A stretch of DNA of 64,000 nucleotides from an uncultured Verrucomicrobiae bacterium. Lineage in GTDB: Bacteria; Verrucomicrobiota; Verrucomicrobiia; Chthoniobacterales; JAATET01. Made by a program: the position numbers and the translations under genes. Of this stretch, positions 15,603 to 58,189 are shown piece by piece. A model generated the notes under the pieces. It was given only the letters and a program-made list of their open reading frames with translations, ran no database searches and was not told where the DNA came from. The DNA lies in NCBI GenBank assembly GCA_963761705.1, contig CAVXHK010000003.1, positions 430,794 to 494,793 on the forward strand. The letters are read 5' to 3'. Positions within the stretch are counted from its first letter, which is position 1. Each line of letters begins with the position of its first letter.

Positions 15603-15777
15603 GGGGCAGTTTTATGGGTGGTCGTGCGCGAAGTCAAATGATGCGGCGGGAAAACCGTGGGCGGATGCCGGGATTTTTGCTTCTGCTGGTCCGTTTGTTG
15701 GAGGCGTTGGTTGCCGGTCGGAGCCGGAGCGAACCGGAGACCGCCGCTCTGGGCAACCCGGTGCCACGGGGGGTGAG

Positions 15778-18829: not shown

Positions 18830-19159
18830 CGCAGGATTTTTGGAATAAATCGGAGGGTGGAACCCGGTGAAGCCGGGCACCCGTCGCGCCCCGCGATTTT
18901 TGGTTCCAGCGCTCGTCTGCTGACCGAGCTTGTCGTAACCGTGCGACAGCTGATCGTTTTTCCGTTGGCGGAGGCGGCGTTCGAGTCGGGCGGTGTGCAG
19001 GTTCTGCGGGTCGAGAACCGATGGTTGACCGGTGGTGAGGGCGACCATTTTCCACCCACCTTGCCCCAAAGAGTGGACGGCTCGGCTGAGGTCGTGGTGG
19101 CGAGAGTGGCGAGGATCGCGAGAGTTGATTTTCGCTCACTGGTCCCGCATGGTGAAGGG

Positions 19160-20935
19160 ATGCGTTCCCTCGTGTGTTTTTCGGTTGTTGCCGGGTTGGT
19201 AAATTTGGTGGCCTCGGCCCGGGCTCAGAGTCCGGAGAAGCCGGAGCGGAAGCTACCGCTCAGCGTGGCGAATGGCGGATTTGAGCGATCTTACGGAGTC
19301 GAGAATCCCTGGACGGGCGTCAATTCGAAAGGAAAGCTGGATTCCTTCCGGGCCGCGGTCCCGGTCCTGACGGAGTCGGGGGCGATCGGCAAGACGCCGA
19401 TGCCGGTCTCGGTGGCGATCCACGACATGAACAACGATGGGTTGCCGGACCTCGTTACGGGGGATCCGAAGGGCTACGTGCGGATCTATTTCAATCAAGG
19501 GACGCCGACCGAGCCGAAATACACGACGGGCGAACTGGCGCAGGCCTACCTGTCGCAGCCGGTCGAGGAATTTGAGGGACGCGACTACACGCGCCTCGCT
19601 CCGCGGGTGAGCGTGGCAGAGCTCGGCGGTTCGCCGCAACTGCTGATCGGCAACTACTTTGGCGAAATCTTCATCCTGCCGAACAAAGGCAGCGCCCAGC
19701 AGCCGTCATTCGCGCAGCCGCCGGATCTCACGCGACTCATGATTCCGACGACAGCGAAAGGAAACGCGCGCTGGGGCAACGTTTTCGCGCCCGTGATGAT
19801 CGATTGGAACAACGACGGCAAGCAGGACATCCTGATCGGCGAGGGCTCGTATTCTGCAAACAACATCCACCTCGCGATCAACGAAGGGACGAACGGCTCG
19901 CCGAAATTCTCCGAGAACAATCGGCACGTTTTGGCCTTCGGCGACGGTCGCGAGCAGCTGACCCCGGCGGTCGTGGATTACAATGCCGACGGGCGTCCCG
20001 ACCTCCTCGTCGGCGCGCGTGACGGGAAGATCGGTGTCTATCTGCAAACCGACCAGCCGTGGGAGCCGGGGGTTGAGTTGCCCTTCGCTTCGTTTCTCTC
20101 GGGGGGTGGCAAGCCACTGGCGGCTCGTGGGATCACGACCATCGCGGCGGGTGATTTGAACGGAGACAAGAAGTTCGACGTTGTCGTCGGACAGGCCGAC
20201 GGCAACATCTCCTACGCGCTGAATACCGGGACGCTGCAGGAGCCGAAATTCGACGCGCTCAAAGAGTTTGGCGGGGCGACTCCGTTCCCCGCGATGCGCT
20301 GGCCTTCCGGCTGGGACGTCTCGCTGGGGTTGGAGCGCGGGAACAACCTCGCCTTCGTGTCGGTCGTGGACGAGGAGCCGGCCGAGGGAAAGAGCTGCTT
20401 GAAGATCGGCTACGTGCCGAACCCGAACGTCGTGATGCCGAGTCCTCTGAACGTCCTCCCGGCTCGCGGGAACTTCGATTTGGAGAAAGGATACAACGGG
20501 AACTTCTCCGCGAATGAGCTCATGGAGTCGGCTCCGTCGAACTTGGTGATGCTCCGGCAGCGGACGCCTTCGCGCCTGAAGATCGGCGATTCCTACACGC
20601 TCAGCTTCATGGCAAAGGGGAATCAAGTTAGTGACGCGGAGGTCTCGGTCATTTTCGATCAAAGCGAAAAAATTGGCGAGGATCAGATCGTGCGGGGTGA
20701 CCGCGGGCGGGCGACGGTGAAGCGCCAAGTCGAGTTTGAGCGTGTGCGCGAGTCCGAAGATTTCTCCGTTGGCTCGACGTGGCGCGAGGTGAAGTCGATC
20801 TTCACCCCACGATTCAAGAGCAGCATCCTGAACAAATTGGACGCAACTCGTTCGGTCGACATCGAAATCATCTTCGAACTCAAGCCCGGCGATGGTGTGC
20901 TCTACATCGACGACGTGAAGTTGACGAAAAATTAA
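19160..20935 (+). CDS. Secreted FG-GAP/VCBS-repeat protein with carbohydrate-binding-like domain
   Basis: Signal peptide; repeats DMNNDGLPDL, DWNNDGKQDI, DYNADGRPDL and DLNGDKKFDV; NGGFE and YIDDVKL CBM-like motifs. Start reassigned to ATG 19160. Confidence 0.8.
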   Translation: MRSLVCFSVVAGLVNLVASARAQSPEKPERKLPLSVANGGFERSYGVENPWTGVNSKGKLDSFRAAVPVLTESGAIGKTPMPVSVAIHDMNNDGLPDLVTGDPKGYVRIYFNQGTPTEPKYTTGELAQAYLSQPVEEFEGRDYTRLAPRVSVAELGGSPQLLIGNYFGEIFILPNKGSAQQPSFAQPPDLTRLMIPTTAKGNARWGNVFAPVMIDWNNDGKQDILIGEGSYSANNIHLAINEGTNGSPKFSENNRHVLAFGDGREQLTPAVVDYNADGRPDLLVGARDGKIGVYLQTDQPWEPGVELPFASFLSGGGKPLAARGITTIAAGDLNGDKKFDVVVGQADGNISYALNTGTLQEPKFDALKEFGGATPFPAMRWPSGWDVSLGLERGNNLAFVSVVDEEPAEGKSCLKIGYVPNPNVVMPSPLNVLPARGNFDLEKGYNGNFSANELMESAPSNLVMLRQRTPSRLKIGDSYTLSFMAKGNQVSDAEVSVIFDQSEKIGEDQIVRGDRGRATVKRQVEFERVRESEDFSVGSTWREVKSIFTPRFKSSILNKLDATRSVDIEIIFELKPGDGVLYIDDVKLTKN

Positions 20936-21918: not shown

Positions 21919-22908
21919 ATGCAGCCCGATTTTGTGATTTCCCAGACCCGCGAACGTTTTCCCGATCTGGGTCTGTCGGACGTGAGCGTTGTGCCGATTG
22001 AAAAGGGAGGCTCCGGGCGAAAATACTACCGCATCGCGGTCGGCGACGGGTCGTCGATGATCGTGGTGAAGTATTCGCCCGAGCGGACGGAGAATCTCAA
22101 GTTTGTCGATCTCGCGATTTTCCTGGACGCGAGTGGCGTGCGCGTACCGCGGATCCACTTCCACGATCCCGCCGAGGGGCTCATCTGGATGCAAGACCTT
22201 GGTTCGCAGGATCTTTGGAGTCTACGCGATGAGTCTTGGTCCGTGCGCGGCCCAGCCTACCGTTCCGCCATCGACGCCGTTTACGAGCTGCACACGTCGG
22301 CCTCCCGGGCGTTCGAAGCCTCGCCCGTGTCCGTCGAATTGGAGTTTGACGAGCAGCTGTATCTTTGGGAACAAGGATACTTCGTCGAGCATTGCCTAAT
22401 GGGGATTTTTGGACTCGATGCGAACGCCGCTGCTCGGGCGGCGGCCTTGCCGATCCTTGGCGAAATGGCGCTGGCGCTGTCCCGCGAGCCGCGCGTGCTG
22501 GTGCATCGCGATTTTCAGTCGCAAAACGTCCTCGTCTTCGGGGGGCAAGGCTGGCTCATTGACTTCCAAGGCCTGCGCCCCGGTCTTCCTCAATACGATC
22601 TCGCTTCGTTGCTCTACGACCCCTACGTCACCCTCACCGACGGCGAACGATCCGAGCTGTTGACCCACTACCGGGACCTCGCAGCGAAGCGGGGGGTTGC
22701 GGTCGGTGATAACTTTGAAGAAATCTTCTGGATGTGCGCGGCGCAGCGATTGATGCAAGCGCTCGGGGCCTACGGGTTTCTGGGACTGCGCGGGGGTCGA
22801 CCTGACTTCCTGGAATACGTCCCCGCCGCCCAGCGTTCGCTCCGAGAGGTGGCGAAGCGCATCGACGGAACCGACGAACTCATCCAACTGCTCGAAAATC
22901 TCCCGTGA
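21919..22908 (+). CDS. APH-fold phosphotransferase (AmgK-like anomeric sugar kinase)
   Basis: GGSGRKYYR, HRDFQSQN, IDFQG, YDLASLLYD, QRLMQALGAY. Confidence 0.85.
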   Translation: MQPDFVISQTRERFPDLGLSDVSVVPIEKGGSGRKYYRIAVGDGSSMIVVKYSPERTENLKFVDLAIFLDASGVRVPRIHFHDPAEGLIWMQDLGSQDLWSLRDESWSVRGPAYRSAIDAVYELHTSASRAFEASPVSVELEFDEQLYLWEQGYFVEHCLMGIFGLDANAAARAAALPILGEMALALSREPRVLVHRDFQSQNVLVFGGQGWLIDFQGLRPGLPQYDLASLLYDPYVTLTDGERSELLTHYRDLAAKRGVAVGDNFEEIFWMCAAQRLMQALGAYGFLGLRGGRPDFLEYVPAAQRSLREVAKRIDGTDELIQLLENLP

Positions 22909-24905
22909 AAAGTGAATACCCGCCCACCGTTGTCATCGAAAACATCTCGCCGCTCGTTTCGCGCGGCAAACACCCCGTCAAGCGCGCGGTCGGCGAGGAA
23001 CTCACCGTCGAAGCCGACATCTTCAAGGAAGGTCACGACGTCGTACGGGCGAGCTTGAAGTGGCGACCGGTCGGCGCCGACACTTGGCACGAGACGGCGA
23101 TGACGCCGCTCGTGAACGACCGCTGGACCGGCACGTTGTCGGTGAGCGAGCCGGGTCACTGGGAGGCGGTCATCCAAGCTTGGGGCGACGATTTCCTGTC
23201 TTGGCAGGACGAGGTCGTCAAAAAGGTCGACGGAGGGCTGGAGAATCTGACGAGCGAGTCGCTGGAAGGTGCGCGCATGCTCCGCGATGCCGCCAAACGC
23301 TCGAAGGACTCGGCGGACAAGAAGCTCCTCGAGAAATTCGCGAAATCGCTCGAGTCCTCGACTCCCGCTGAACTGAAAGCCATCGCGATCGACCCCGAAG
23401 TCGAGGGGCGCATGGAGTATCTGCTGGACCGAACCCTCGCGACGACGGCGGACCCAGTCATGCCGATCTGGGTCGACCGCAAACGGGCCGCTTACGCGAG
23501 CTGGTATGAATTTTTCCCACGCTCTGCCGAAGGCAAGCCCGACTCGGGATCGACCTTCCGCGATTGCTTGCCTCGCATCGACGACGCGAAAGCGATGGGC
23601 TTCGACGTGATTTATTTTCCGCCGATCCATCCCATTGGGGTATCGAACCGCAAGGGTCCGAACAACACACTCAACGCTGGTCCTGGCGATCCCGGGGTGC
23701 CTTACGCGATTGGCAATTCAGCGCAGGGCGTAAACGGCGGTGGTCACAAGGACGTCGCGCCAGAGCTCGGCACGCTCGAAGATTTCGACTGGCTCGTTGG
23801 AGAGCTGCACGACCGCGACATGGAGATCGCGCTGGATTTTGCCATCAATTGCTCGCCCGATCATCCCTACGTGCGCGACCACCCCGATTGGTTCTTCAAG
23901 CGTCCGGACGGCACGATCAAATACGCGGAGAATCCCCCGAAGAAATATCAGGACGTCTATCCGCTCAACTTCCACTGCAAGGACTGGCGAGCACTCTGGG
24001 ACGAACTTCGCGATGTTCTCATCTTCTGGGCCGATCGCGGCGTGAAGATCTTCCGCGTCGACAACCCGCACACCAAACCCTTCTCGTTCTGGGAATGGGT
24101 TATCGCCGAAGTGCTGGCCAAGCACCCGGACGTCATTTTCCTGAGCGAGGCCTTCACCCGGCCCAAGATGATGCAGGAGCTGGCGAAGGTCGGCTACACG
24201 CAGAGCTACACGTATTTCACCTGGCGCGAGACGAAAGAGGACCTCACGGAGTACCTTGAAGAACTCTGCCAGGGGCCGATGGCGGACTACTTCCGCGGAA
24301 ATTTCTTCACCAATACGCCCGATATCCTGCCCGAGCACCTCGTCACCGGTGGACGTCCGGCATTTCTCATTCGCGCGGTTCTGGCGACAACGCTTGTGCC
24401 CGTTTACGGGATCTACAGCGGCTTCGAACTGTGCGAAAATGACCAGTTTCCTGGCAAGGAAGAGTACAATCACTCCGAGAAATACGACTTCAAGGGCCGC
24501 GACTGGAACGCCCCGGGGAACATCAAAGACTGGATCACCGCCCTCAACCGTGCCCGCCGCGAGAACCGGGCGTTGCAGGAATACCGCAACCTAGCGTTCC
24601 ACAAGTCCGACAACGACCAGATCCTCTTTTTCAGCAAGATGACTGCGGGTCGCGACAACATCGTCTTCGTGGCCGTCAACCTCGACCCATTCGCGACTCA
24701 GAGCGGCTTCGTCGACGTGCCGGTGCAGGACTTTGGACTGCTGCCGGGCGGCCGCTACCGGGTGCGCGATCTGCTGTCGAACGAGACTTTCAACTGGTCA
24801 GGCAGCCGCAACTTCGTCTCCCTCGATCCCCGAAACCGCCCCGCCCACGTCCTGGTCGTTGAACGCTGGACCGGCCGCGAGGCCGGCAGAGACGTGTTCG
24901 AGTAG
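22905..24905 (+). CDS. glgE: Alpha-1,4-glucan:maltose-1-phosphate maltosyltransferase
   Basis: WYEFFPRS, AENPPKKYQD, FRVDNPHTKP, FLSEAFTRP, QSYTYFTWR, NTPDIL. Confidence 0.95.
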   Translation: MKSEYPPTVVIENISPLVSRGKHPVKRAVGEELTVEADIFKEGHDVVRASLKWRPVGADTWHETAMTPLVNDRWTGTLSVSEPGHWEAVIQAWGDDFLSWQDEVVKKVDGGLENLTSESLEGARMLRDAAKRSKDSADKKLLEKFAKSLESSTPAELKAIAIDPEVEGRMEYLLDRTLATTADPVMPIWVDRKRAAYASWYEFFPRSAEGKPDSGSTFRDCLPRIDDAKAMGFDVIYFPPIHPIGVSNRKGPNNTLNAGPGDPGVPYAIGNSAQGVNGGGHKDVAPELGTLEDFDWLVGELHDRDMEIALDFAINCSPDHPYVRDHPDWFFKRPDGTIKYAENPPKKYQDVYPLNFHCKDWRALWDELRDVLIFWADRGVKIFRVDNPHTKPFSFWEWVIAEVLAKHPDVIFLSEAFTRPKMMQELAKVGYTQSYTYFTWRETKEDLTEYLEELCQGPMADYFRGNFFTNTPDILPEHLVTGGRPAFLIRAVLATTLVPVYGIYSGFELCENDQFPGKEEYNHSEKYDFKGRDWNAPGNIKDWITALNRARRENRALQEYRNLAFHKSDNDQILFFSKMTAGRDNIVFVAVNLDPFATQSGFVDVPVQDFGLLPGGRYRVRDLLSNETFNWSGSRNFVSLDPRNRPAHVLVVERWTGREAGRDVFE

Positions 24906-25034
24906 ACGAAAGCGCGAAGCGGCGGGTCATAACTCCGACTGAGCCGCTGGGAACATCCTCCGGACGATAGCGTCCGACGGCTTCGCAACTGACTGAGTCG
25001 CGTTTGTGCGCAGCGCAGTTATTTTTTTGCAGAA

Positions 25035-25050
25035 TGGCAAGTTTCTTGCT
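25035..25050 (+). promoter_or_regulatory. Sigma-54 (-24/-12) promoter motif for the PEP-CTERM gene
   Basis: TGGCAAGTTTCTTGCT has GG-N10-GC spacing and lies 100 nt upstream of the ATG. Confidence 0.65.
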
Positions 25051-25149
25051 TCTCGGGCGTGTGACGAAAACGTCACTTCGATAGGTCGGGACTGACTTGC
25101 GACAATGTCGGAGTCACCTACGGTTTCGCGGCCCGCCGACTGAACGGTC

Positions 25150-27621
25150 ATGATTTTTACTCAATCGATTGCATCCACCATGAAAAACAAAATTTCTTTC
25201 AGGACCCCGAAGACCTTCCGCGCTGCCTTGCTCGCGCTCATTTGCGGCGGGTCTCTCGGAACCGCCCATTTCCTGCATGCGGCAACACCGATCTCGTTCA
25301 GCGGCACGACCTACTCGGAAAATTTTGACGGGCTTCCGAGTGCCACACCCGATCCGACCTTTGCCAGTGCGGGTCCATTCGATGTCCCTGGCATTGCCGG
25401 GTGGAGTTTTTTCAAAGCCGAGGGCAATAGTGCCCCCGCGTTGTTCCGGGTTGGCGATGGCAGCGCAAACAGCGGAAGCATGTATAGTTTCGGCTCAGTT
25501 GGAAGCTCCGACCGTGCTTTGGGAGGTCTCGCCAGCGGATCAGGGGGTTACCAGTTCGGTGCGGTTTTCACCAACGATACGCTTTCAACGCTCACCTCAT
25601 TTACGCTGAACTACAACGGGGAGCAATGGCGCTACGGTGGGTCTGGCGATCGTCAGTCGCCGTTCGTTTTCGAATACAGCCTGAACGCCCCGGACATCAC
25701 GAGCGGTATCTTCAGCCCGGCCCCTTCGCTCAATCTGACACCAACGATCACCACCGGGGAAAACGGTGGGGCGCTCGACGGGAACCTCGCCGCGAACCAG
25801 ACGACGATCAGCTCAACAACCTCCGGATTTCTATGGCAGCCGGGAACGACGCTGACGATTCGGTGGACGGACACCAACAACGCGGGATCAGACGACGGCC
25901 TAGCGGTCGATGACCTTAGCTTTGATGCCGTTGCCGGCTCATTTTCGACCTTGGTTTGGAATCAGACCGGTGGGGACTGGAATACGACCGATGCCAACTG
26001 GACGGGCGAATCGACCGTCTACAGTGACGGCGACTTGGTTCAATTCACGGATGCGAACGTCGGAACCGTCAATCTCGACGCGGGCGGCGTTTCGCCGATT
26101 CAGGCGCAGGTGACAAACACCACCGGAACCTACTCGTTCGTTGGCGGTCCGCTCACGGGGAGTGGCTCCCTAGTCAAAACGGGTGCGGGCACTCTTGAAC
26201 TCGGCGTGACGACCGACATGACCGGCGGGATAACGATCAACGAAGGAACCGTGAGAACGACGGATAGTAACCTCCTCGGCGACAGCCTCGCGATCTCTGT
26301 CAACAGTGGCGGAGTTCTCGATCTCGCCGCAAATACCGACCAGATTGGCAATCTGTTCCTCACCGGCGGAACCGTTCGAACGGACGGGTTGAGCGGAGTA
26401 GTGGTTTTAGGTCAGTCGGTCAACGTTCTCGCGGACGCCGGCGGCTCATTCATCGAGGGATTCGTGGCTACGAACGGGATCGCGCCAGATTTCTCGGTCG
26501 CCGACGGCGCAGCAGCCATCGACCTGACGATCAGCGCGTCATTGCTGGGAGCCGACCGGATCACTTTCGAGGGACCGGGAACGACTGCCCTGAACGGTGA
26601 TAACATTGGTCACTCGGGCGGCATTTCACTCAACGCGGGAATTCTGGAGTTGGCATCGAATACTAGCCTAGGAACGGGTTCGTTGTTTTTCAACGGTGGC
26701 ACGGTCCGGGCCTCCTCGGATTTGAGCGGAGCAAACGCCATCAACGTGACGGTGAGTCACGGCGGAGACGCGACCGTGGATGCCACGGCGAACGCGATCG
26801 AGTTCACAAGCTTCAGCACGTCATTCGGCTCAGCTGCAAAGACGCTGACCGTCCTCGGAGACGTAACGATCTCTGGGGTGATCGCGAATGGTGGAGCGGA
26901 AGGGCAATTTGCAGGTGTCTTGAATAAAGCCGGCAGCGGAACCCTGACACTCACCCAGCAAAATACCTATACCGGAATCACCACGGTCCAGGGAGGTACC
27001 TTGGCTTTGGCGGACGGTGCTGGGATCTCGGCGAGTTCGTCGATTCGCGTCGATGCTGGGGCGACCTTTGACCTCTCGGCTCAGACCACGGAATACGTGA
27101 TCACAAAGAACGCCGAGGTGACGCAGAGCCTGCAGGGTGGTGGCGTGGTCGTCGCACCAACGGCGGGTCTGGTCGTGAACGGAGATCTTGCTCCCGGGGG
27201 TCCGTTGGCTGCTACGTTGACGCAGACGCTAACCATCCAGGGTGGCCCGGTCACGTTCGGGAGCGAGTCCAGCCTGACGATGCAGCTGGCGGGTCTGCTC
27301 GGAGCGGAGTTTGATCAGTTAGTTGTCTCGGAGGGCTTGCTGACTCTGGATGGAACGCTCGTGCTATCTCTCTCCGGGGGATTCGTTCCAACCGAATCCG
27401 ATCAGTTTACGATCGTCTCAGGTCTACAGGGGATCTCCGGAGCCTTCGCAAACGCGGCCTTTGGCGATCGAGTGGCGTTCGCCGATGGATCGTTCCTCGT
27501 CAGCCTCTCGGGAAATGACGTTGTTTTGTCGAACTACATGCCTGTCCCCGAGCCGACTACGATTCTATTGCTAGTTATTTCCGGAGTTGCTCTCTACGCC
27601 TATCGCCGTCGAGCCGCTTGA
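25150..27621 (+). CDS. PEP-CTERM sorting-domain protein with autotransporter-associated beta-strand repeats
   Basis: Signal peptide; repeats GSLVKTGAGTLEL...GGITINEGT and LNKAGSGTLTLTQQNTYTGITTVQGGTL; C-terminal VPEPTT + TM + RRR. Start may be 25180. Confidence 0.92.
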   Translation: MIFTQSIASTMKNKISFRTPKTFRAALLALICGGSLGTAHFLHAATPISFSGTTYSENFDGLPSATPDPTFASAGPFDVPGIAGWSFFKAEGNSAPALFRVGDGSANSGSMYSFGSVGSSDRALGGLASGSGGYQFGAVFTNDTLSTLTSFTLNYNGEQWRYGGSGDRQSPFVFEYSLNAPDITSGIFSPAPSLNLTPTITTGENGGALDGNLAANQTTISSTTSGFLWQPGTTLTIRWTDTNNAGSDDGLAVDDLSFDAVAGSFSTLVWNQTGGDWNTTDANWTGESTVYSDGDLVQFTDANVGTVNLDAGGVSPIQAQVTNTTGTYSFVGGPLTGSGSLVKTGAGTLELGVTTDMTGGITINEGTVRTTDSNLLGDSLAISVNSGGVLDLAANTDQIGNLFLTGGTVRTDGLSGVVVLGQSVNVLADAGGSFIEGFVATNGIAPDFSVADGAAAIDLTISASLLGADRITFEGPGTTALNGDNIGHSGGISLNAGILELASNTSLGTGSLFFNGGTVRASSDLSGANAINVTVSHGGDATVDATANAIEFTSFSTSFGSAAKTLTVLGDVTISGVIANGGAEGQFAGVLNKAGSGTLTLTQQNTYTGITTVQGGTLALADGAGISASSSIRVDAGATFDLSAQTTEYVITKNAEVTQSLQGGGVVVAPTAGLVVNGDLAPGGPLAATLTQTLTIQGGPVTFGSESSLTMQLAGLLGAEFDQLVVSEGLLTLDGTLVLSLSGGFVPTESDQFTIVSGLQGISGAFANAAFGDRVAFADGSFLVSLSGNDVVLSNYMPVPEPTTILLLVISGVALYAYRRRAA

Positions 27622-28033
27622 TTTTGTCACTTCGAAACTGGCTTGCGGCAGATGGGCCCACTTATCTTGAGCAGTTGGATCTTCGCTTGAAACACGTTTT
27701 GAGTAGATCCCTATCCAGCCCTTGAGAAGTAGCTTTGACAAAATCTTCTAAAGGTCAGCTCCCGCATTCGTCGAGGCAGGGGTTCGGCTGACGGATCGAT
27801 CGTTAGCGAAAGGTTGAACTTAAAGACGATTTTTCTGGAGGCAATATCCTACAGTTGCTTGTCGGGTGCTTCATAAAAAACGGGGGCGCGAGCCAGTATC
27901 CGAATGAGCTAAAAGTATCCCCAAGTTGCTCGTTCTGCGGTTTCATCTAGTGCGAAAGCCCTTTAATCGTAAGGCGCTAGTTAGCCTCGTCCAAACGATT
28001 TTTTGCCCAACGGTGATTCCGAGAGTTTTTGAA

Positions 28034-28669
28034 TTATCGTATGAGGTCTGGTGTACGCTCCATGTCGTGTATGAGCCAAGGCGTTGACCCCATTGAGAGC
28101 AAAATTCCCCTGTAAGCAGGAGCTCTTTTTTGAGTCACTGCGTCATAGCCCTCCCCGTTGCCATCCGGGAGCCAATCAATCGAATCGATTACCAGGTCGT
28201 TTACCACGATTTCAACGCGTGCCGCCACGGGTGTACCGAATCTTTCCGTGGCGTTTGGGCTTAGATACATCACGGCCGAGGAAGTACCCTCCTTAACGTT
28301 GGAGTAGGTGATTTCGCCAGTGAGGTTGCGAAGACGCGACTTTTTTCCAATCTGTGGGTCAACAATCATCGAGTAGCGAAACGTGACGTTGTCCGTCCAT
28401 GGATCCGTCGTCTTGAAATCGCAGACCAATTTGGCCCAGTTTTCAGTTGTCCCCGGAAGCGCTTCCTGAATGAATTTGAACTCTACTCCCGAGATATTCT
28501 CGTCCGGTTTCGCTCGTTGTGATTCGTTGGGAATAGGTTGTGCTGAGATGCTCGGAAATGAATCGACGACACCTACGAACGCGATCAACAAAAGCAGAAA
28601 GCGTTCAGTTTGAGGGAGGAAATGCCTAACCTTTATTCTTCGGTTGAAACGAATTGGGTCTGCCGTCAT
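28034..28669 (-). CDS. Amuc_1102-like pilus-associated exported protein (paralogue 2)
   Basis: WAKLVCDFKT...LTGEITYSNV...VMYLSPNATERFG...TPWL; clearly similar to 28695-29249. Family call is from recalled motif pattern. Confidence 0.6.
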   Translation of the reverse strand: MTADPIRFNRRIKVRHFLPQTERFLLLLIAFVGVVDSFPSISAQPIPNESQRAKPDENISGVEFKFIQEALPGTTENWAKLVCDFKTTDPWTDNVTFRYSMIVDPQIGKKSRLRNLTGEITYSNVKEGTSSAVMYLSPNATERFGTPVAARVEIVVNDLVIDSIDWLPDGNGEGYDAVTQKRAPAYRGILLSMGSTPWLIHDMERTPDLIR

Positions 28670-28694
28670 TTTAAGAATCGCGGGTTTCGCGGGA

Positions 28695-29249
28695 TTAGCG
28701 GACTAACAGGTCTGGGGATTTGGATGCGTCGACCGTCAGCCAGGGTGTTTCGTAAACTGACTTTAGCATTCCGTTGACTTGAGGGAGCGCCTGCAAATCT
28801 TCGGGGAGCGCTTCACCCCACGACTTTTCACCGGAGATCCGGTCGCCGCGAAAAATTTCAACCTTGATTCCGAGCGGCTTCCCATACCTTTCAGTCGCGT
28901 TCGGGCTGATGTAGATGATGCCCCTTGAAGTCCCAGCCGGGACGTTCATGTACGTCAATCCACCAGCTAATAATCGCTTTTCATCGCCGCCCGCACCCTT
29001 CACAAGGACGTAAAAATTCATGGATACACCGTCAGTCCACTTATCGACGGTCTTAAAATCGCAAACAATTTTAGTCCAAGTAAGGTTTGATTCTGGAAGG
29101 CTTGCAGCAACGACTTCGATTTTTTCTATTTTGGTCGTTTCTTCATTGTCGATAGGGGCTTGAGCTCTCAGGTCCGAAGACGTTGAGAACACCCAAGCCA
29201 GACTGCTAGACAACAGGGCCAGCGATGGAAGGATTTTTCGATAGCTCAT
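28695..29249 (-). CDS. Amuc_1102-like pilus-associated exported protein (paralogue 1)
   Basis: Signal peptide; WTKIVCDFKT...LAGGLTYMNV...IYISPNATERYG...TPWL; ATGA overlap with the upstream large gene. Confidence 0.6.
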   Translation of the reverse strand: MSYRKILPSLALLSSSLAWVFSTSSDLRAQAPIDNEETTKIEKIEVVAASLPESNLTWTKIVCDFKTVDKWTDGVSMNFYVLVKGAGGDEKRLLAGGLTYMNVPAGTSRGIIYISPNATERYGKPLGIKVEIFRGDRISGEKSWGEALPEDLQALPQVNGMLKSVYETPWLTVDASKSPDLLVR

Positions 29250-31933
29250 TGGACAAATTGGCGGATAATTTTAGGAGTTAGCTGAGAGGAGGTGCCGCTG
29301 GCTGTTGGCAGCATCTGGATTTCGGTAACCAAGGTGACTCGGGACAGCGTTCTACCCAGATTTCTGGCTTCGCCAACTGAGTAGATGGTGAAAGTCTGCG
29401 ACGATGTCGTAAGCGCTGGGGTGACGTTTCCGACCAGTCGTTCTTTTTCGAATTCCGTCGTTCCGTCCGCAAGGAAAACTGGATCATCTAAGACATCAGA
29501 TGCCTTAAAAAATGGGCCTGCCGAATTCGCAGTCAACGCATTGATGAGCGGAAGCGGCTGGGCCAAGGAGGGGATTTCGGTCAAGAGTGCTTGGATCGTT
29601 GCGCGCTTTGGAGTGTTAGGATTGACGAGACCGTCCGTCTCGAACTGATCAAATGCGTTCAGCTGCCGGGGGCTGTCGCCAAGTTCAACGTAGTCGAGTA
29701 ATCGCCAATCTGCGGTTTCATAGGGTGACTCGAACCGCTCGGCATCGTGAAACATGGTCAACGTTTGCCAAGGTGCACCCGCGTGAATGAAGCCAAGCTC
29801 CGATAACGACCGCAAAGCGACATCACCGGGCTCCTTGCTCGGTTCGTACCCCTGTGCAAAAGTCGGAAAGTGGTTCTTTGTTCCTTCGGATCGCGACCAT
29901 TGCCCAGCTTGTGGACCCAACGTTTGCAGTTTGTCGCGATCGGGATTCGGCTGTGCAGCATACATGTCGTCACCGCTCGTGGGCGCATAGCCGGTTGCCG
30001 TTGAGAAGCCCGTCGTTCCAGACGGTGACCATCCTTCGGCTCGGAAATTCATTCGCGGATCACCTTGGTAGTGCCAGTCTATTTGACTCCATCCGAAACC
30101 AAGTTTGAACTTTGTCGGAGAAGCCTCTAACGGGAATGAGGTGGGGGACCACGAACGGGCCTTGTCCGCTTGCATGGACGCTTCTTGAACCAGGTATCGT
30201 TGACCGTTCAAGTAGTAGATTAAACGAGCGACTTCCGGGTAGGCCGTCAAGCTATTGAATCTTACCCCTCCCGCACTGATAGAATAGAACCCGTTAGCGA
30301 GGTCAAAGGAGCCGTGGTACGTCCGCGGGAAGAGGGAATATCCCTTCGTATCGCCTGGCGCTTTTGGCTCAAAATATTTTGTACCATTTCGAACCGCGTC
30401 GTCCGACGAATACCCGGACTGTTGTGCCAGCCAACTCCGCAGAATGTAGTTTTCTTGGATGTTGGGTCCTCGGTTACCGCCTTCAACGGTGCCGTCAAGT
30501 CGGAATTGGAGCTCAGCTTGATAGCGAGTGTCTGCACCAATTGTGATTCGAGCTCTTTGAGCCCACGGATAGCCGAGGCCAAACCAACCGAGGAGCCGCG
30601 AAGAAGAAACGAAGGAGCCATTCCCATTGAAGATGAAGCCTTGGCCGATGTAAATGATGTAGGGATGTCCACGGACTTCAGAAATCCCACCGTCAACATC
30701 GTCCCCGTGACGAGCCTCTAGCCCAAAGACGGTTGGACGAGGAGGGGGCGGTTGGAGTATGTGATTGTTATTCGGGTTGTTTGGAGAGGAGATCCCGGTG
30801 CCGGCTCCAGCGGGTTCTGGTCCCGGCGAACCATCCGTCGTCGGGATGATGTCTTCGTCAATATAGTCTAGGATATTCGCAACGATTTGTCGGGCTTGAG
30901 TCGGGTCCCCATTGCCGTCCAATTCTGGGAACAGCGTCCGTAAAATTTCAAGATTGCCGTAGCCCCAGTCGTTCTCTTCATTCGCCGGATAGTTCCCGTC
31001 CTCATTGAGTAGATTTTTGACCAGTTCGAACCGTTCACTGCTAGGACCCTGCTCAAGCGGAAGTTGAATATAGCTTTCCGAGAAAACCTCGTTCCCTCTT
31101 CGGTCCAAGGCGGTGTAGGTGCCGCCATCGAGGTATCGTTTCAGCCGGGTCAAATTGAGTTTTGGGTTACCCTCTGGAGTTAAGAGAGCTGAGGGCGAAT
31201 TAAGCGTTGCGTCGAAATCGGTGATAGGAGTTGGATTATCCGAGATGAAGTGATTGACCGTCTTTGGAGTCAACAGTTGGAGGTTGGACGGGAGGTCGGG
31301 ATCGGAACTTTGCGCTGTCGCGAAATTAGCGGCGAGCTTGTTGGAAAGGTCTAATCCGTTTCGGGAGAAGAGAGGGATCTCGGACAAACTCTCGAGTTTG
31401 TCACGGTTAGGGATGCCTGAAAAAACATTGAAGTTTTGCTTCGCGCTTCCCGCATCGAGCCAATACGCGAAGCGGGCAATCTCATCGCCATCCTCATCGA
31501 GCAGTTGTTTCCAAGCCGCTGTTCGGGTCGCTGACGTTCCTGCCGCCTGCGAACCAGACCCAACAACCTCTATAACGGTAGTTTCCCCGTTTTGTCCGGA
31601 TGAAAGCTCAATTGCAGTCTCCAACTCGTCTGAATCAAGAATTCCGACGCGCACCTCGGCGGTTTCCGTTGCAAGCCCGCGGTCTTTGTAGGTGACAACG
31701 TAATGGAAACGGGAATCCGCAAGACTATTGGTGAGCAGTGCTTCCGCATCGGCAAGCCCTGCTTCCGCCGCAAGTTCGGCGGTCTCTCGATTAAGGTAAC
31801 TCCGGGCAGTTTGCCTTTCGACCGTCATACTCTGGAGGAACGCCGTTACGATTATCGTAAGGACAACGACGGCTAGAAGAGTTGAGATGAGGGCAGAGCC
31901 AGAATGGAGGCGACGGTGGTCACGCATATACAA
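29246..31933 (-). CDS. Large PilX/GspK-like protein (Verru_Chthon cassette protein A-like)
   Basis: GSALISTLLAVVVL (no Glu5), A..AAEAGL, RFAYWLD...K.N, NILDYID.D, ELGFIH, C-terminal SQTFTIYSVGEA. Confidence 0.75.
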   Translation of the reverse strand: MYMRDHRRLHSGSALISTLLAVVVLTIIVTAFLQSMTVERQTARSYLNRETAELAAEAGLADAEALLTNSLADSRFHYVVTYKDRGLATETAEVRVGILDSDELETAIELSSGQNGETTVIEVVGSGSQAAGTSATRTAAWKQLLDEDGDEIARFAYWLDAGSAKQNFNVFSGIPNRDKLESLSEIPLFSRNGLDLSNKLAANFATAQSSDPDLPSNLQLLTPKTVNHFISDNPTPITDFDATLNSPSALLTPEGNPKLNLTRLKRYLDGGTYTALDRRGNEVFSESYIQLPLEQGPSSERFELVKNLLNEDGNYPANEENDWGYGNLEILRTLFPELDGNGDPTQARQIVANILDYIDEDIIPTTDGSPGPEPAGAGTGISSPNNPNNNHILQPPPPRPTVFGLEARHGDDVDGGISEVRGHPYIIYIGQGFIFNGNGSFVSSSRLLGWFGLGYPWAQRARITIGADTRYQAELQFRLDGTVEGGNRGPNIQENYILRSWLAQQSGYSSDDAVRNGTKYFEPKAPGDTKGYSLFPRTYHGSFDLANGFYSISAGGVRFNSLTAYPEVARLIYYLNGQRYLVQEASMQADKARSWSPTSFPLEASPTKFKLGFGWSQIDWHYQGDPRMNFRAEGWSPSGTTGFSTATGYAPTSGDDMYAAQPNPDRDKLQTLGPQAGQWSRSEGTKNHFPTFAQGYEPSKEPGDVALRSLSELGFIHAGAPWQTLTMFHDAERFESPYETADWRLLDYVELGDSPRQLNAFDQFETDGLVNPNTPKRATIQALLTEIPSLAQPLPLINALTANSAGPFFKASDVLDDPVFLADGTTEFEKERLVGNVTPALTTSSQTFTIYSVGEARNLGRTLSRVTLVTEIQMLPTASGTSSQLTPKIIRQFVQ

Positions 31934-31934
31934 T

Positions 31935-32780
31935 TCAGGGGGCTACGCTGGCTGCGGCTGCGGCATTGGCAGATTGGGCGACTGGTAAATCGACGCGGAT
32001 AACGAATGTCCTGGCATTTTCAAGGTAGGTAGGGGTGGTCGCGTCTTGCCATATCGCTTTATCATCACCCCACCTGTCGGCGGTGTCTTGATTTACGGCG
32101 ACGATTTTGATTTCGACAACGTTCGGCATCGGCTGGCTGGAGCTTTGATCAAACTCCGTCAAGGCAGGCCCAGATGTGACAGTCTTTGGCGTGACGATGA
32201 ATGCTGCGATGTTCCGCGCGAGCACCTCGACGGTCTTCGACGGGAGCGGGGTCGCGACCGTCCCATCCGTAAAGAACGGAGTTGATTGGCCGGTCGAAAT
32301 ATTCTCGAAAGTGTCATCGCTGCTGATGAAATATCGATAGAGGTTATACGAACCAGTTGCCGACGCCCCGGTCGAAGTATTTCCCCAAGCGAGGAAGTAG
32401 CCGACGGCGCAGAGATCGCCTTCACTGCCCTGCTCCTGAGCTGAGTCAGGCTTTGCGGTTACGAAAAACAAGCTGTTCGCGATGCCATCGGGAGCAGGTC
32501 CGCTCACAAGGTCTTCGATATCGGATCGAGATGTGCGCCAGTCGAAAAATTTCTCTTCGATCGACGGGTGGATGGATTTGAGATCAGCCGCGATAGTGTT
32601 GAATGCAGCGCGAGCCTCGCGGTAGCTGTCGACACGGTTTTCGCTGTCCCTCCAAAGGCGGGATGCGCCATCAACCATCGACAGAAGAATCAGGAGCAAA
32701 ACGGATAGGACCGTGATAGCAACGAGAAGCTCCAAGAGCGTAAAAGCCGTTCGACGGCATCCGGACGGAGGTCGGATCAT
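31935..32780 (-). CDS. Prepilin-type N-methylation protein, PilW/GspJ-like (cassette protein C-like)
   Basis: AFTLLELLVAITVL, REARAAF..IAADL, GDLCAVGYF. Confidence 0.8.
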   Translation of the reverse strand: MIRPPSGCRRTAFTLLELLVAITVLSVLLLILLSMVDGASRLWRDSENRVDSYREARAAFNTIAADLKSIHPSIEEKFFDWRTSRSDIEDLVSGPAPDGIANSLFFVTAKPDSAQEQGSEGDLCAVGYFLAWGNTSTGASATGSYNLYRYFISSDDTFENISTGQSTPFFTDGTVATPLPSKTVEVLARNIAAFIVTPKTVTSGPALTEFDQSSSQPMPNVVEIKIVAVNQDTADRWGDDKAIWQDATTPTYLENARTFVIRVDLPVAQSANAAAAASVAP

Positions 32781-33280
32781 TAGGGTGGAGGAGCGGAGGG
32801 AGGCGTTTTACGGCGAATTATTGACGAGAATGAATAGCTCGTACTCCCGGCGCTGTTAGCCGGAGCCTCCGCAGGTGTGACGATCTGGATGGATACTGAA
32901 GTCAACCCAACCGCTGGATCGTCTGGCGAAAAAGTGACAGATGCTAAAAACTTTGGACTGTCTGCATGGAGGGAGTCGGTTGCTGCCTCGCTTCCTTCGG
33001 CCGTTCCGTTCTCAAAAAAATTAAGATTCTCGGTTGTGCTGCTCGTCAGATTAGTGGCTTGTCCGTCACCGAAATAAGGAGGATTCGAATTGAGTCCTGA
33101 AAAAATCGAGCTTGCAATGAAGGCCACTTGAGTTTCGTCCTGGGCGGCCGTCGCCGCGTCCAAGGCAACTGGGAATAGACCTAAAATTCCAACTAGTGCG
33201 AATGAGATTATCCCGACCGCAAGAACGATCTCGATCAGTGAAAAAGCGGCTTGGCCCCGGCGGATCGCCCGGGCCATCAT
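32780..33280 (-). CDS. Prepilin-type protein, PilV/GspI-like (cassette protein B-like)
   Basis: AFSLIEIVLAVGIISFALVGILGLFP. Confidence 0.8.
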   Translation of the reverse strand: MMARAIRRGQAAFSLIEIVLAVGIISFALVGILGLFPVALDAATAAQDETQVAFIASSIFSGLNSNPPYFGDGQATNLTSSTTENLNFFENGTAEGSEAATDSLHADSPKFLASVTFSPDDPAVGLTSVSIQIVTPAEAPANSAGSTSYSFSSIIRRKTPPSAPPP

Positions 33281-33990
33281 CGTGTTTCGTTCGAGCTAGA
33301 CTTGAAGTCAGTCAAAGTTGTGATGTCGAGGCGCGCCCTACCGGTGAATCTTGCGAAAGCAATCCGTTCGAAATCGGACAACTTTGCTTGCGTCCCAGCT
33401 TCACCCCTCACGCCCTCGGTGATGAAGAGAGTCAGGTTTGCGTCATTTGCGCTTGGATACGAGATCGCTCCAGACGGGTTGAACTGGACGTAGGATAGCT
33501 TGCCAGCCTCGCCTGCTTCCAATCCTGGTGGCTCGTAGTTGCTCGGGAGCGATGCTGGTTTCGACAGAGTCGTCGGTGTGACAATGGTGTTAGCAAGTGA
33601 GTAGAGGAGAACTTTGTCTGGAAGATCGATCCATTTGGTCAGCTGGACGGGACCAGTGCCCGGAGATGTTGTTTCCCAAATAGGGCGATCTCGAATGACC
33701 ATGAGCGCGTCAGGATCCGGAAAAGTCCGACGGCGGAGAAGGACGTAGGTGTTGGCCCCAGATTCAAGTGCTGCAACCCGGGCTTGCTCGAAAGTGTTCA
33801 TCAAAGTCGTAACAGCTGCCTTTCGGCCGATCGTGCTGCCAAAGTTGCTCAACGAGGGAGCGAGGAGGCTGAGCATGACGACCATGATGGCCATGACGGC
33901 GATGAGCTCGACGAGGGAGAAGGCACCGCGATGGCCTCGGAGCCTGCACTGCAGGGCAACGTTGGAAGGTTCTGTTCGACCGAATGGCAT
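33277..33990 (-). CDS. Prepilin-type protein, FimT/GspH-like (cassette protein D-like)
   Basis: GAFSLVELIAVMAIM, EQARVAAL, VQFNPSG, FTGRAR. ATG 33990 has an AAGGAG ribosome-binding site upstream. Confidence 0.8.
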   Translation of the reverse strand: MPFGRTEPSNVALQCRLRGHRGAFSLVELIAVMAIMVVMLSLLAPSLSNFGSTIGRKAAVTTLMNTFEQARVAALESGANTYVLLRRRTFPDPDALMVIRDRPIWETTSPGTGPVQLTKWIDLPDKVLLYSLANTIVTPTTLSKPASLPSNYEPPGLEAGEAGKLSYVQFNPSGAISYPSANDANLTLFITEGVRGEAGTQAKLSDFERIAFARFTGRARLDITTLTDFKSSSNETR

Positions 33991-34267
33991 TCTCAACTCC
34001 TTGCAGGGTGTGGCGTGGGTCCGCAAAAGACAAAATGTGCCAACATTGTGACTTGATTCAAGTGATTGTTTGTCAGCGAAATACGGGTTGACGGGCGCGG
34101 GGTGTTCAAGCGGAGCTAGTTTCGGGCTTCTTGCCGACCAACTGGATCGCGGAACCCGAGAGGGCGGTCGGTGGTTGAACGGTGGTGTGAGCATGAAAAT
34201 CAGCAGCCGGTCGCTTTTTCTCCGAAGGCTCTTCAGTCGAAAAACAAGCGTGACTTGGAAACAACTC

Positions 34268-34283
34268 AGCACCCTCCGTGCCA
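34268..34283 (-). promoter_or_regulatory. Sigma-54-type promoter motif oriented toward the pilin cassette
   Basis: Minus strand reads TGGCACGGAGGGTGCT (GG-N10-GC), about 280 nt upstream of 33990. Confidence 0.5.
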
Positions 34284-34467
34284 AACGGGAATTTCGCGAG
34301 TGTCGCTGTTGCTCTGCGTTTGCAGGAATTTGCACGGTCAGCTGGAAGGCGGCGGTGATGTCGAATTGGGGGTTCGTTTGTTCAAGATACAGCCAAATTG
34401 AGGGCGGGCTGCGAAATTTCTTCGGTCTGGATCTTCCCGGCTATCAACAGCTACAAAAATCACTTCT

Positions 34468-34722
34468 ATGGGCATTCTTTCTTGGATCATTTTTGGCCTC
34501 ATCGCTGGGGCCGTCGCGAAACTCATCATGCCCGGGAAGGATCCGGGAGGTTGTATCATCACGATCATACTCGGCGTCGTTGGGGCCTCGGTTGGTGGCT
34601 GGATTGGGACGCTGTTGGGATTTGGCGGGGTGGATGGTTTCAACATCGGCAGCTTTGGTGTGGCGGTGTTGGGCGCGATCGTACTGCTTTTGATCTATCG
34701 CCTCGTTTTGGGTCGGAAGTAG
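34468..34722 (+). CDS. GlsB/YeaQ/YmgE family membrane protein
   Basis: MGILSWIIFGLIAGAVAKLIMPGKDPGG...GAIVLL. Confidence 0.92.
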   Translation: MGILSWIIFGLIAGAVAKLIMPGKDPGGCIITIILGVVGASVGGWIGTLLGFGGVDGFNIGSFGVAVLGAIVLLLIYRLVLGRK

Positions 34723-34769
34723 GGTCGCTGGGCGAGGGAATGCCTTCCCTGCCTTTGATTGCGGCGCGG

Positions 34770-35693
34770 TCAGACGTCCTTGGGGCGGTAGATGATGATG
34801 CCGGCTTGGTCGCTGGATCGCTTGAGGTAGTCCGTGATGGTGGTGTCGAGAATGACCTTGCGACCGAGGTCCCGGTTGGAGGTCGCGTGGAGGAATCGGG
34901 CGCGGTCCCCGTCGCGAACGATGAGGCCGACGTGCGAAGTGTAGCTGCCGTGCCAGGTGCTGGTGATGGCGACGACGTCGCCGGTGCGGAGTTGGTTCTC
35001 GATCCCGCGGACCTGGGCGCGGGGGATGTGGTAGACGGGAAGGGCGGAGACATCTTTCTGAATGCGGGCCATTTCCGGGAGGAGTGAGCGATCGCTGCGG
35101 AGGTAGCGGTAGCTCTTCCAGGCGGAGGTCATTTCAGTGATGTCGCGGCGAATGCGGACACCGCCGAGAGAGCGGGTGGGATTTTCGGACAGACCGCGCT
35201 GGGTGTTGTCGGCGAAGACTTCTTCGAGGAAGTGCATGCGTGACAGGTAACCGCCGGTGCAGCGGCCGTCGCGGTAGCGCTCGAGTTCGATCATGGCGAG
35301 GAGGTCCCGGGGTTCGTAGGGGGGTGCCTGGGCCTTGATCATGCGGGCGAAGGCGAGGGAGATCTCGTAGAAGGTCCAGCAGTCGAGGCCGTTGAAGTTG
35401 GCGGACGGAGCTTCGATCCGGTCGTCGATCTCGAGGGTGTAGTTGACGTAGGGGGTGCCGACGAGAGCCTGGCCGACCGTGGCGGTGCGCTCGCCGATGG
35501 GAAGGGCGCGCCAGTTTTCGCGAACGGCCCGGGCGACGAGTCGATTGAACTCATCCTCGCCCTTGAAGACGGTGCTGAGCGGGAGTCGGAGTGGCGGATT
35601 CCTCGGCGGGGTGGTGCCGGCGTGGACGGTGGCCGGGGAATTGGCGAGAAATGCGAAGAGGCCGGTGAGGAGGAGCGGCGGGAAATTTTTCAT
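34770..35693 (-). CDS. DUF1460 / N-acetylmuramoyl-L-alanine amidase-like (NlpC/P60 superfamily) exported protein
   Basis: Signal peptide; GTPYV..TLE, LDCWTFYE, RYRDG...Y.SR.HF, SHVGL, FLHATS. Confidence 0.8.
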   Translation of the reverse strand: MKNFPPLLLTGLFAFLANSPATVHAGTTPPRNPPLRLPLSTVFKGEDEFNRLVARAVRENWRALPIGERTATVGQALVGTPYVNYTLEIDDRIEAPSANFNGLDCWTFYEISLAFARMIKAQAPPYEPRDLLAMIELERYRDGRCTGGYLSRMHFLEEVFADNTQRGLSENPTRSLGGVRIRRDITEMTSAWKSYRYLRSDRSLLPEMARIQKDVSALPVYHIPRAQVRGIENQLRTGDVVAITSTWHGSYTSHVGLIVRDGDRARFLHATSNRDLGRKVILDTTITDYLKRSSDQAGIIIYRPKDV

Positions 35694-58148: not shown

Positions 58149-58189
58149 TTCGGCGGCGGCTCGGTCGAGCCCGTTGCTGAGTGGTTGTC

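Follow-up and report, generated by a model that had tools for sequence, protein, structure and literature searches.

The window analyzed here, a stretch of 64,000 nucleotides (nt) from an uncultured Verrucomicrobiae bacterium (assembly GCA_963761705.1, contig CAVXHK010000003.1; the genome is called G000 below), raises the question of what is encoded by a block of low G+C content (GC) at positions 24906-34467. The block is bordered by glgE on one side (22905-24905; GlgE N/S and C domains) and by a small yeaQ/GlsB-type gene on the other (34468-34722). It carries an operon with prepilin-like genes on the minus strand that converges on a PEP-CTERM gene on the plus strand. We consider it fairly probable, though well short of certain, that the block is an exchangeable module for the tip of a pseudopilus or type IV-like filament, under the control of sigma-54 and with a giant GspK-fold cap protein, dedicated Amuc_1102-like partners and an assembly machine that is encoded elsewhere.

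The minus-strand unit is a single six-gene operon that runs from position 33990 down to 28034. Its genes are D237 (33277-33990), B166 (32780-33280), C281 (31935-32780), A895 (29246-31933), S184 (28695-29249) and S211 (28034-28669), all on the minus strand and referred to below as D, B, C, A and S. The series is tightly coupled, since the junctions either overlap (by 4 nt at D/B, 1 nt at B/C and 4 nt at A/S184) or leave gaps of at most 25 nt (1 nt at C/A and 25 nt at S184/S211). The reading frames of all six genes are intact. The true ATG of D is at 33990, preceded by AAGGAG; a 352-amino-acid (aa) version in the list of open reading frames (ORFs) is over-extended. An earlier note on this DNA had described four tightly coupled prepilin-like genes in FimT-PilV-PilW-PilX order. 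The coupling stood, as did the order, which is equivalent to the GspH/I/J/K-like order of the genes, but the count did not: there are six genes, the last two being Amuc_1102-family paralogs that follow A895.

The first three products are prepilin-like and carry the motif AF(S/T)L(V/I/L)E. D237, in the GspH/FimT position, has AFSLVE; B166, which is GspI/PilV-like, has AFSLIE; and C281, in the GspJ/PilW position, has AFTLLE. N_methyl matches were obtained for all three. In NCBIfam, the best matches for D, B, C and A were Verru_Chthon D, B, C and A together with PilV, GspJ and GspK, and the best-scoring Verru_Chthon model for each protein runs D-B-C-A along the operon. B166 matched TIGR02523 pilV at E 4.7e-6 over profile positions 1-103 of 139, below the cut-off. 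The genome has five cassettes in all: that of the window, two that score above the cut-offs (C2:153049-157832 and C1:1781987-1786759) and two that are partial. Since two other cassettes in the same genome pass, the window's cassette is a divergent type rather than a weak copy returned by a poor search.

The fourth product, A895, is a giant GspK/XcpX-like minor pseudopilin of 895 aa. Its structural model, from a shallow alignment of 15 sequences, has a mean predicted local distance difference test score (pLDDT) of 71.9 and a predicted template modeling (TM) score of 0.76. With VIA-align, the best structural match was XcpX (5vtm_X; Z 12.2, root mean square deviation 3.6, 225 residues), followed by GspK (3ci0_K; Z 11.2, 243 residues) and ComZ (PDB 6qvi; Z 8.7), while the remaining, unrelated entries reached at most 5.2. 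Because the XcpX and GspK alignments span A895 from about residue 41 to residue 895, the model points to a GspK/XcpX fold in which the pilin core is formed by both chain ends and is interrupted by an insert of ~650 residues. Residues ~422-619 form a beta-sandwich within this insert, with a weak likeness (Z ~5) to the Ig-like beta-sandwich of GH2 enzymes. A895 also has a long pilin-type hydrophobic N-terminal helix, with Ser in place of the Glu at +5. Absence of Glu at +5 is a trait of GspK.

We searched an A895 profile against 1.84 billion representatives and obtained 4386 matches at E<=0.001, 1318 at E<=1e-10 and 131 at E<=1e-30. Only 41 sequences match in one stretch, at E<=7e-75, after which the values drop to 2e-47. 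Below that point most match in two to four stretches, the best of which is N-terminal (~1-262) or C-terminal (~600-886). Because these split matches center on the N- or C-terminal profile positions, the ends of A895 are common to a large superfamily of giant cap proteins and its middle is specific to a small family. A word-based search with A895 found 14 proteins in 5.8 billion clusters. The earlier note had attributed a large unique insert to the 895-aa protein; the insert measures ~650 aa, and the middle of the protein is common to just 41 clusters.

The last two products, S184 and S211, have Sec-type signal peptides, not prepilin motifs, and are 36-39% identical to each other. Both appear to be divergent members of the Amuc_1102 family, as judged from profiles and models. 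An alignment with hhalign of eight S-family members to seven canonical Amuc_1102-family proteins gave a probability of 98.7% and E 1.8e-16 over 156 columns, and the S profile matched Amuc_1102 (7dsz) in the PDB at E 9.4e-5. The S184 model (pLDDT 81.4; shallow alignment, 15 sequences) had 7dsz as its top Foldseek match, at E 2.6e-9 and TM 0.67 over 173 columns and with ~18% identity; the next entry was at 7e-4. In a reciprocal hmmsearch of the genome's own ORF set, the only other match of the S profile was the canonical Amuc_1102 copy, at E 2.9e-10. Public annotation assigns PF28178 (Atlas name Amuc_1102) to S184, to its closest homologue and to 27 of the 30 nearest Atlas clusters. With the NF042424 model, which has a cut-off of 55 bits, S211 scored 17.4, S184 had no match and the genome search found the canonical copy alone.

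The canonical Amuc_1102 gene is present as a single copy in 33 of 41 genomes of the order (this tally, like that for A895 below, includes G016). In G000 it heads a cluster that also encodes a 582-aa protein, two smaller proteins and two secretins, and that mirrors the Amuc_1102-to-1098 cluster of Akkermansia. The accessible text of one study describes the products of the Akkermansia cluster as abundant envelope proteins, with proposed pili-like structures, and does not establish the function of Amuc_1102 (PMC5332112).

To what extent is this gene order kept elsewhere? Of 40 relatives, 24 match A895 somewhere, mostly in the first 60-100 residues, and five (G014, G010, G031, G035 and G001) have full-length homologues, the G001 gene being in three pieces. 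In all five, D-B-C lies upstream of A and an S gene directly follows it. We also scanned public genomes, one per species (185,579 species), and recovered 14 loci, of which 13 bear the titles of Verrucomicrobiota lineages and the remaining one that of a Pirellulaceae bin; one homologue is named Terrimicrobiaceae by its source. By their gene layout, four of the 14 may be the same genomes as relatives already counted, and the relatives do not give independent counts. By tblastn, all 14 public loci have an S-like gene behind A, and 12 have the complete order D-B-C-A-S; the exceptions are a contig that starts inside A and a contig with only 1.7 kb upstream. The S genes are the most constant partners of A895, and two S genes occur in the window only. 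Pairwise similarities over 36 pairs from nine loci, a crude measure that is uncorrected for relatedness, correlated at r 0.83 for A and S and r 0.85 for C and D, compared with 0.32 for S and C and 0.29 for S and D. This contrast is consistent with two sub-modules, {D, C} and {A, S}.

We examined the glgE/yeaQ site in close relatives. At this site in G001, D, B and C are 59%, 43% and 52% identical to those of the window and are followed by an A of another type (1035 aa) and an unrelated 243-aa gene. In G005, where the site lies by yeaQ, an AmiA-like gene and a transketolase gene, the identities are 47%, 43% and 50%, and again there is an A of another type (981 aa), followed by a 248-aa gene unrelated to S. 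Proteins flanking the site are 88-94% identical in these two genomes, and both cassettes are low in GC (0.559 in G001 and 0.539 in G005), such that a low-GC cassette sits at the same site in three species of the genus. No cassette was found in G002 or G004 within the 12-13 kb examined beside glgE.

A second copy of the G001 cassette (locus L023, contig C5) is on a contig of 20.6 kb. Up to the D/B junction, it agrees with the first at 96.6% over 7.8 kb of flank, and past this junction it is unrelated; between the two copies, the protein identities are 75% for D, 45% for B and 54.5% for C. In L023 a broken A895-type gene, split in three frames (L023:9216-12063), is followed by S, a Mutator-family transposase gene (L023:13248-14432) and a PEP-CTERM gene. 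Be it a strain variant or a duplication, this copy shows that the distal part of the cassette was replaced. In G014 (locus L021), two giant cap genes of different types stand in tandem behind a single D-B-C (L021:5171-8254 and L021:9427-12219), and the small genes behind them are one of 289 aa, with a weak DUF4397 match, and an S gene. The 243-, 248- and 289-aa genes that follow the other A types have no detectable kinship to the S family or to each other. Because sister species carry other A-plus-accessory pairs at the same site, the module appears to be exchangeable, with A and its accessory gene, and to a lesser degree B and C, replaced between related genomes. This agrees with the exchangeable module that the earlier note had proposed; the two G001 versions, which share their flank and D and then diverge, are a case in point.

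The composition of the block sets it apart from its surroundings, as the description of an AT-richer island had implied. Its GC is 0.546, compared with 0.627 and 0.637 in the 10-kb flanks, and in 1-kb steps GC is 0.51-0.59 over 25001-35000 and 0.60-0.70 in the rest of the window. This places the block within the lowest 2.6% of 3470 genome segments, each 9.5 kb long. GC is ordinary (0.61-0.67) in the genome's other four cassettes. We found no direct repeats flanking the block, no integrase or transposase gene in the window and no transfer RNA (tRNA) gene near the block, the sole one being 13 kb away. Because flanking repeats, a nearby tRNA gene and a mobility gene are all lacking, we read the block as a hypervariable locus rather than as a fresh insertion. 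The replication-strand GC skew of this genome is unusually strong, mostly 0.1-0.3 absolute in 20-kb windows, and its sign switches on contigs C1 and C4. Within the window, skew in 1-kb steps is mostly 0.2-0.38 and is near zero from ~19 to 34 kb.

The convergent gene (25150-27621, plus strand) encodes an 823-aa protein with an N-terminal signal peptide and PATR (autotransporter-associated beta-strand) repeats. It passed TIGR02601 (56.8 bits, cut-off 19.85), Pfam PATR (52.9, cut-off 27) and TIGR02595 PEP-CTERM (23 bits, cut-off 16), while Pfam PEP-CTERM PF07589 scored slightly under its cut-off (17.5, cut-off 20.7). The genome encodes exosortase, with EpsH-family matches at C1:1835420 (above the cut-off) and C1:313944. 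With a TIGR02595 tail above the cut-off and an exosortase in the genome, the protein is a predicted exosortase substrate with beta-strand repeats, as had been suggested. An Atlas search with its N-terminal part found unnamed clusters only, below 0.9. In G014, a 35%-identical homologue lies after the S gene on the same strand. A pattern scan detected a terminator-like hairpin with a T run (25004-25028, plus strand), 3′ of glgE and just 5′ of the sigma-54-like motif described next.

We searched for sigma-54-like -24/-12 motifs, allowing no more than one mismatch to the consensus TGGCAC-N5-TTGCW and none in its GG and GC. The GG-N10-GC motifs that the earlier note had placed before both units are present. 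One, TGGCAAgtttcTTGCT (25035-25050, plus strand), is 100 nt upstream of the PEP-CTERM gene; the other, TGGCACggaggGTGCT (34283-34268, minus strand), is upstream of D. The window has just five one-mismatch matches, these two included. Of the 43 such motifs in the 3.5-Mb genome, most fall within ORFs, and about eight, the window's two among them, are intergenic and point toward a gene. A motif lies within 350 nt upstream of only 11 of 3006 crude genes (gene calls in our scripted counts are longest-ORF approximations), and among 30 ORFs that overlap PEP-CTERM matches, the window's alone has a one-mismatch motif upstream. In relatives, a motif of the form TGGCAC-N5-CTGCT occurs upstream of D at the same relative place, as TGGCACgctgaCTGCT in both G001 copies and TGGCACgccgaCTGCT in G005. 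Each is the sole one-mismatch site of its ~20-kb locus, and a two-mismatch form is upstream of D in G014. A further motif of the genome, TGGCACgccaaCTGCT (C2:29319-29334), is intergenic, lies 63 nt upstream of a gene for an NMT1-like ABC substrate-binding protein and has the CTGCT element seen in the relatives' cassettes.

The genome has one copy of rpoN. The only sigma-54 activator-domain protein found at E<=1e-10 is an NtrC-family response regulator (C2:69449-70987), which scores below all curated cut-offs (ntrC, 446 of 559; PrsR, 379.5 of 502.6). The whole sigma-54 regulon of this genome may hang on this one regulator. Both window motifs are GG-N10-GC elements that are intergenic and oriented toward their genes, and co-regulation of the PEP-CTERM gene and the operon via sigma-54 is plausible on sequence grounds. 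The accessible text of PMC9850573 describes an RpoN-dependent PEP-CTERM gene with TGGCAC and CTGCTT elements. Our scan for sigma-70-type promoters found none in either upstream region. We also considered and rejected a structured leader RNA for the operon, as the predicted fold was no more stable than shuffled sequences (z +2.0).

Which machine would assemble the products of this operon? No GspE/PilB-type ATPase, T2SSE, secretin or prepilin peptidase gene was found in the window. As the earlier note had supposed, candidates for the core machine are elsewhere in the genome: it encodes one prepilin peptidase and four secretins and, among its ATPases, three of the long T2SSE type and several that are PilT-like. 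The orthologous cassette of G031 is placed immediately after a T2SS-like cluster with a GspL-like gene; the genes just ahead of it encode, in order, a prepilin, a 425-aa protein, GspM_b, a 426-aa protein and a secretin. The best G000 matches of the 425-aa protein, GspM_b and the secretin cluster together at C1:1519646-1527415, where GspL-like, GspM_b, a 217-aa possible lipoprotein, secretin, GspE and GspF are encoded and there is no pilin or pseudopilin gene. Because of this synteny in one relative, the pilin-less C1 cluster is in our view the most likely partner machine.

In the mechanism that we favor, the operon would encode a complex that primes or tips a filament, be it a type II secretion pseudopilus or a type IV-like fiber, and in this complex three small prepilin-like subunits in the GspH, GspI and GspJ positions join the giant GspK-fold cap. 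The ~650-aa insert of the cap, with its beta-sandwich domains, would lie at the distal end of the filament. The two Sec-exported Amuc_1102-fold proteins may bind the cap as dedicated partners, acting as its chaperone, as a dock or as a further part of the tip. Processing of the subunits would fall to the one prepilin peptidase that the genome encodes, and assembly would proceed on the machine encoded elsewhere, most likely that at C1. Since A and its accessory gene are replaced between related genomes, and B and C less so, the exchangeable module would give the tip of the filament its specificity. Both this operon and the convergent PEP-CTERM/PATR gene would probably be switched on jointly by the lone NtrC-family activator.

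Several results weigh against this reading. The Verru_Chthon families named in the earlier note lack the support of their hidden Markov models (HMMs): the scores of all four proteins are below the curated cut-offs (D, 20.8 of 70; B, 30.5 of 51.4; C, 72.4 of 256.5; A, 23.6 of 332.3), and the matches cover only N-terminal profile positions, from 1-50 up to 1-89. The curated NCBIfam cut-offs of GspK (35.2 of 130), GspJ (17.5 of 64.85) and PilV (27.1 of 52.2) are likewise missed, and HMM matches of D, B, C and A are limited to about the first 50-100 residues. In the PDB, profiles built from 10 orthologues each of D and C match solved pilins through the N-terminal helix alone, so that D is identified as GspH, and C as GspJ, by position and size. 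With Foldseek, A895 had no PDB match at E<=0.001. The machine was chosen from the synteny of one relative, and an Amuc_1098-1102-like cluster, to whose first gene product the S proteins are paralogous, could be the partner instead.

The evidence for sigma-54 control has counterparts of its own. The distance from the sigma-54-like motif to the D start codon is ~280 nt. The motif upstream of D was not found at loci L022 and L025 or at L024, where D follows a secretin gene, nor was the motif found at the four other cassettes of G000. A conserved block nearer to D than the distal motif (34022-34072, minus strand) contains the palindrome ACTTGAaTCAAGT at 34051-34063 and is a candidate operator or proximal promoter. 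In an alignment of four species, it was the best-conserved part of the region upstream of D, shared by three species of the genus and in part by G014. This block may be the real control site or the working promoter.

A different account of the locus starts from its PEP-CTERM neighbors. The genome has 28 PEP-CTERM matches, and all five cassettes have one within 0.5-6.9 kb (490, 6937, 2780, 1567 and 4950 nt to the nearest). Random placement, repeated 100000 times, put all five within 6937 nt at a rate of 3e-5; this threshold is post hoc, and a sum-of-log-distance statistic gave only p 0.033. Among orthologous loci, there is a PEP-CTERM gene within ~2 kb of S in L021 (the PATR homologue of G014), L022 and L023, while none was found near S in L024 or L025. 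The syntenic G001 cassette on contig C2 has no PEP-CTERM gene between it and glgE, and in G005 there are two nearby. Of the 14 public loci, two have a PEP-CTERM neighbor, four encode a large protein downstream, two stop at the end of S and six have nothing, leaving half of the 12 assessable loci without a tagged neighbor. The cassette/PEP-CTERM linkage proposed earlier is thus supported within this genome, at five of five within 7 kb, and is not constant across orthologous loci. The link is real as a neighborhood tendency in this family and may reflect either co-regulated surface remodeling or a cargo and its adaptor. In the second case, the giant cap would bind the neighboring tagged protein, which in the window is the PEP-CTERM/PATR product, after exosortase processing and push it through the secretin, with each cassette serving its own neighbor. 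The rare sigma-54-like motif on both window units speaks for this account, as do the distant loci L052, L053 and L060/L061, in which large anchor- or tail-bearing proteins directly follow S, but the PEP-CTERM proteins next to cassettes are non-orthologous (823, ~760, 275 and 253 aa) and the distance statistics are those given above. We regard a cargo adaptor as unlikely. The large proteins 3′ of S in L052, L053 and L060/L061 have a choice-of-anchor J domain and/or a shared C-terminal tail of ~70 aa (IVRTxD...DQDGVPxGxER..FSxPxG..K.FLRLxSxL), which is not PEP-CTERM; two carriers of the tail also have choice-of-anchor J. The tail-bearing proteins are encoded just 3′ of S at L052:4938-8843, L053:11313-14303, L061:5162-8320 and L060:14041-14772 and 15739-16983. 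The tail is absent from the window's genome and may be an undescribed sorting or secretion tag.

The kinship of the S proteins suggests another possibility, that the operon encodes minor pilins of a type IV-like adhesive surface fiber built by the Amuc_1098-1102-like machine (G000:C4:150392-159889). In such a fiber, the S proteins would replace or supplement canonical Amuc_1102, A895 would be a tip adhesin and the PEP-CTERM gene would be a mere neighbor in an island of surface protein genes. The S proteins are indeed paralogous to the protein that heads the C4 cluster, the canonical copy is near-universal across the order and single (33/41 genomes), the corresponding Akkermansia proteins are abundant in the envelope and proposed to be pili-like in the accessible text of PMC5332112, and third among the structural matches of A895 comes ComZ, a pilin that likewise has a large domain inserted. 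We nevertheless think an adhesive fiber unlikely, because the G031 cassette is attached to a GspL/GspM_b/secretin cluster, apart from the canonical Amuc_1102 locus of that genome, and because the best structural matches of A895 are GspK and XcpX of the type II secretion system (T2SS). Finally, the block could be a horizontally acquired remnant that is silent or no longer works. Its low GC, its weak skew in a strongly skewed genome and the A895-type gene that lies in three pieces beside a Mutator-family transposase in G001 would fit this. Six intact frames with coupled junctions, an order kept in 12 of 14 public loci, low-GC cassettes at the same site in three species of the genus and the failure to find flanking repeats, tRNA or mobility genes in the block make a remnant very improbable.

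Amuc_1102 belongs to an Akkermansia envelope cluster that also encodes Amuc_1100. Verru_Chthon-type cassettes are catalogued yet unstudied; our literature search, which covered sources outside subscription journals, found no paper with the term "Verru_Chthon", and the accessible text of one paper on PEP-CTERM and pseudopilins does not treat linkage between the cassettes and PEP-CTERM genes. An Amuc_1102-like protein is tied to a giant GspK-fold cap in 14/14 loci, and the cap and its accessory gene can be swapped at a conserved site, which provides a testable hypothesis for both families. If the PEP-CTERM link holds, it bears on how exosortase substrates cross the outer membrane. A bolder proposal, which we offer tentatively and rather doubt, is that cargo-specific pseudopilus tips solve the outer-membrane step for PEP-CTERM and similarly tagged proteins in Verrucomicrobia, each cassette and its accessory loading one neighbor onto a shared, pilin-less T2SS-like machine under a joint sigma-54 switch. 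On this proposal, partnering a giant cap would be the first function ascribed to the Amuc_1102 family. If the link fails, clear modular variation of a filament tip in a little-studied phylum would still stand.

Several other features of the window lie apart from these genes. Two large FG-GAP repeat proteins are encoded in the flanks of the block (18857-20935, plus strand; 41557-43899, minus strand). Genes for a MoxR-type AAA_3 ATPase, a DUF4381 protein, BatA/VWA and VWA/TPR proteins lie at 57156-62594 on the plus strand, an arrangement comparable to aerotolerance (Bat) operons. The only Rfam match at E<=1, to a small nucleolar RNA model, scored 20.6 of 40 bits, below the gathering score, and was dismissed as chance.

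How does the locus compare with known systems? The likeness to the T2SS tip genes GspH-I-J-K and XcpU-V-W-X (3ci0, 5vtm) lies in the gene order, the GspK-fold cap and the position of the G031 cassette beside GspL-like, GspM_b and secretin genes. The window's cap, however, is ~3 times larger and has a long insert; the cassette stands apart from its gsp machine, with none of GspD, E, F, L or M in the window; five cassettes per genome stand against three GspE-like ATPases; and Ala, not Gly, precedes the Phe of the prepilin motif. S184 and S211 share the fold and family of Amuc_1102 of Akkermansia muciniphila (7dsz; NF042424; PF28178) and an association with a secretin-type filament system, but they end a minor-pseudopilin operon instead of heading a machine cluster, and they are a tandem duplicate in a genome with the canonical copy elsewhere. 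The PEP-CTERM gene resembles pepA of Aquincola tertiaricarbonis (PrsK/PrsR), where, according to the accessible text, a PEP-CTERM gene follows a -24/-12 motif of the form TGGCAC / (C/T)TGCT (PMC9850573); exosortase genes are present here as well. Unlike in that system, the G000 activator is under the PrsR cut-off and scores higher for NtrC, only 1 of 30 PEP-CTERM ORFs has the motif, and the pseudopilin operon carries it too. ComZ of Thermus thermophilus (6qvi) also has a pilin fold that is interrupted by a large beta-rich insert, although only 118 residues align, the taxon is a different one and the inserts have no sequence relation.

Alternative tip modules at one site have a precedent in Pseudomonas aeruginosa, whose allelic minor-pilin/pilin islands place alternative tip or minor pilin sets at one conserved site. 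Those islands adjoin the major pilin within a type IVa pilus system and are not known to have an Amuc_1102-like or PEP-CTERM partner. With the Verru_Chthon cassette (TIGR02596 D, TIGR02598 B, TIGR02599 C and TIGR02600 A), the operon shares the D-B-C-A order, prepilin-like N-termini, a giant last protein and the phylum. It differs in that A is 895 aa rather than the 1296 positions of the model, in that its proteins are far under the cut-offs and match over 50-90 N-terminal profile positions only, and in having Amuc_1102-like genes attached and a low GC unlike that of the genome's other four cassettes. The locus appears to be a swappable version of a gene cassette that is known, though unstudied.

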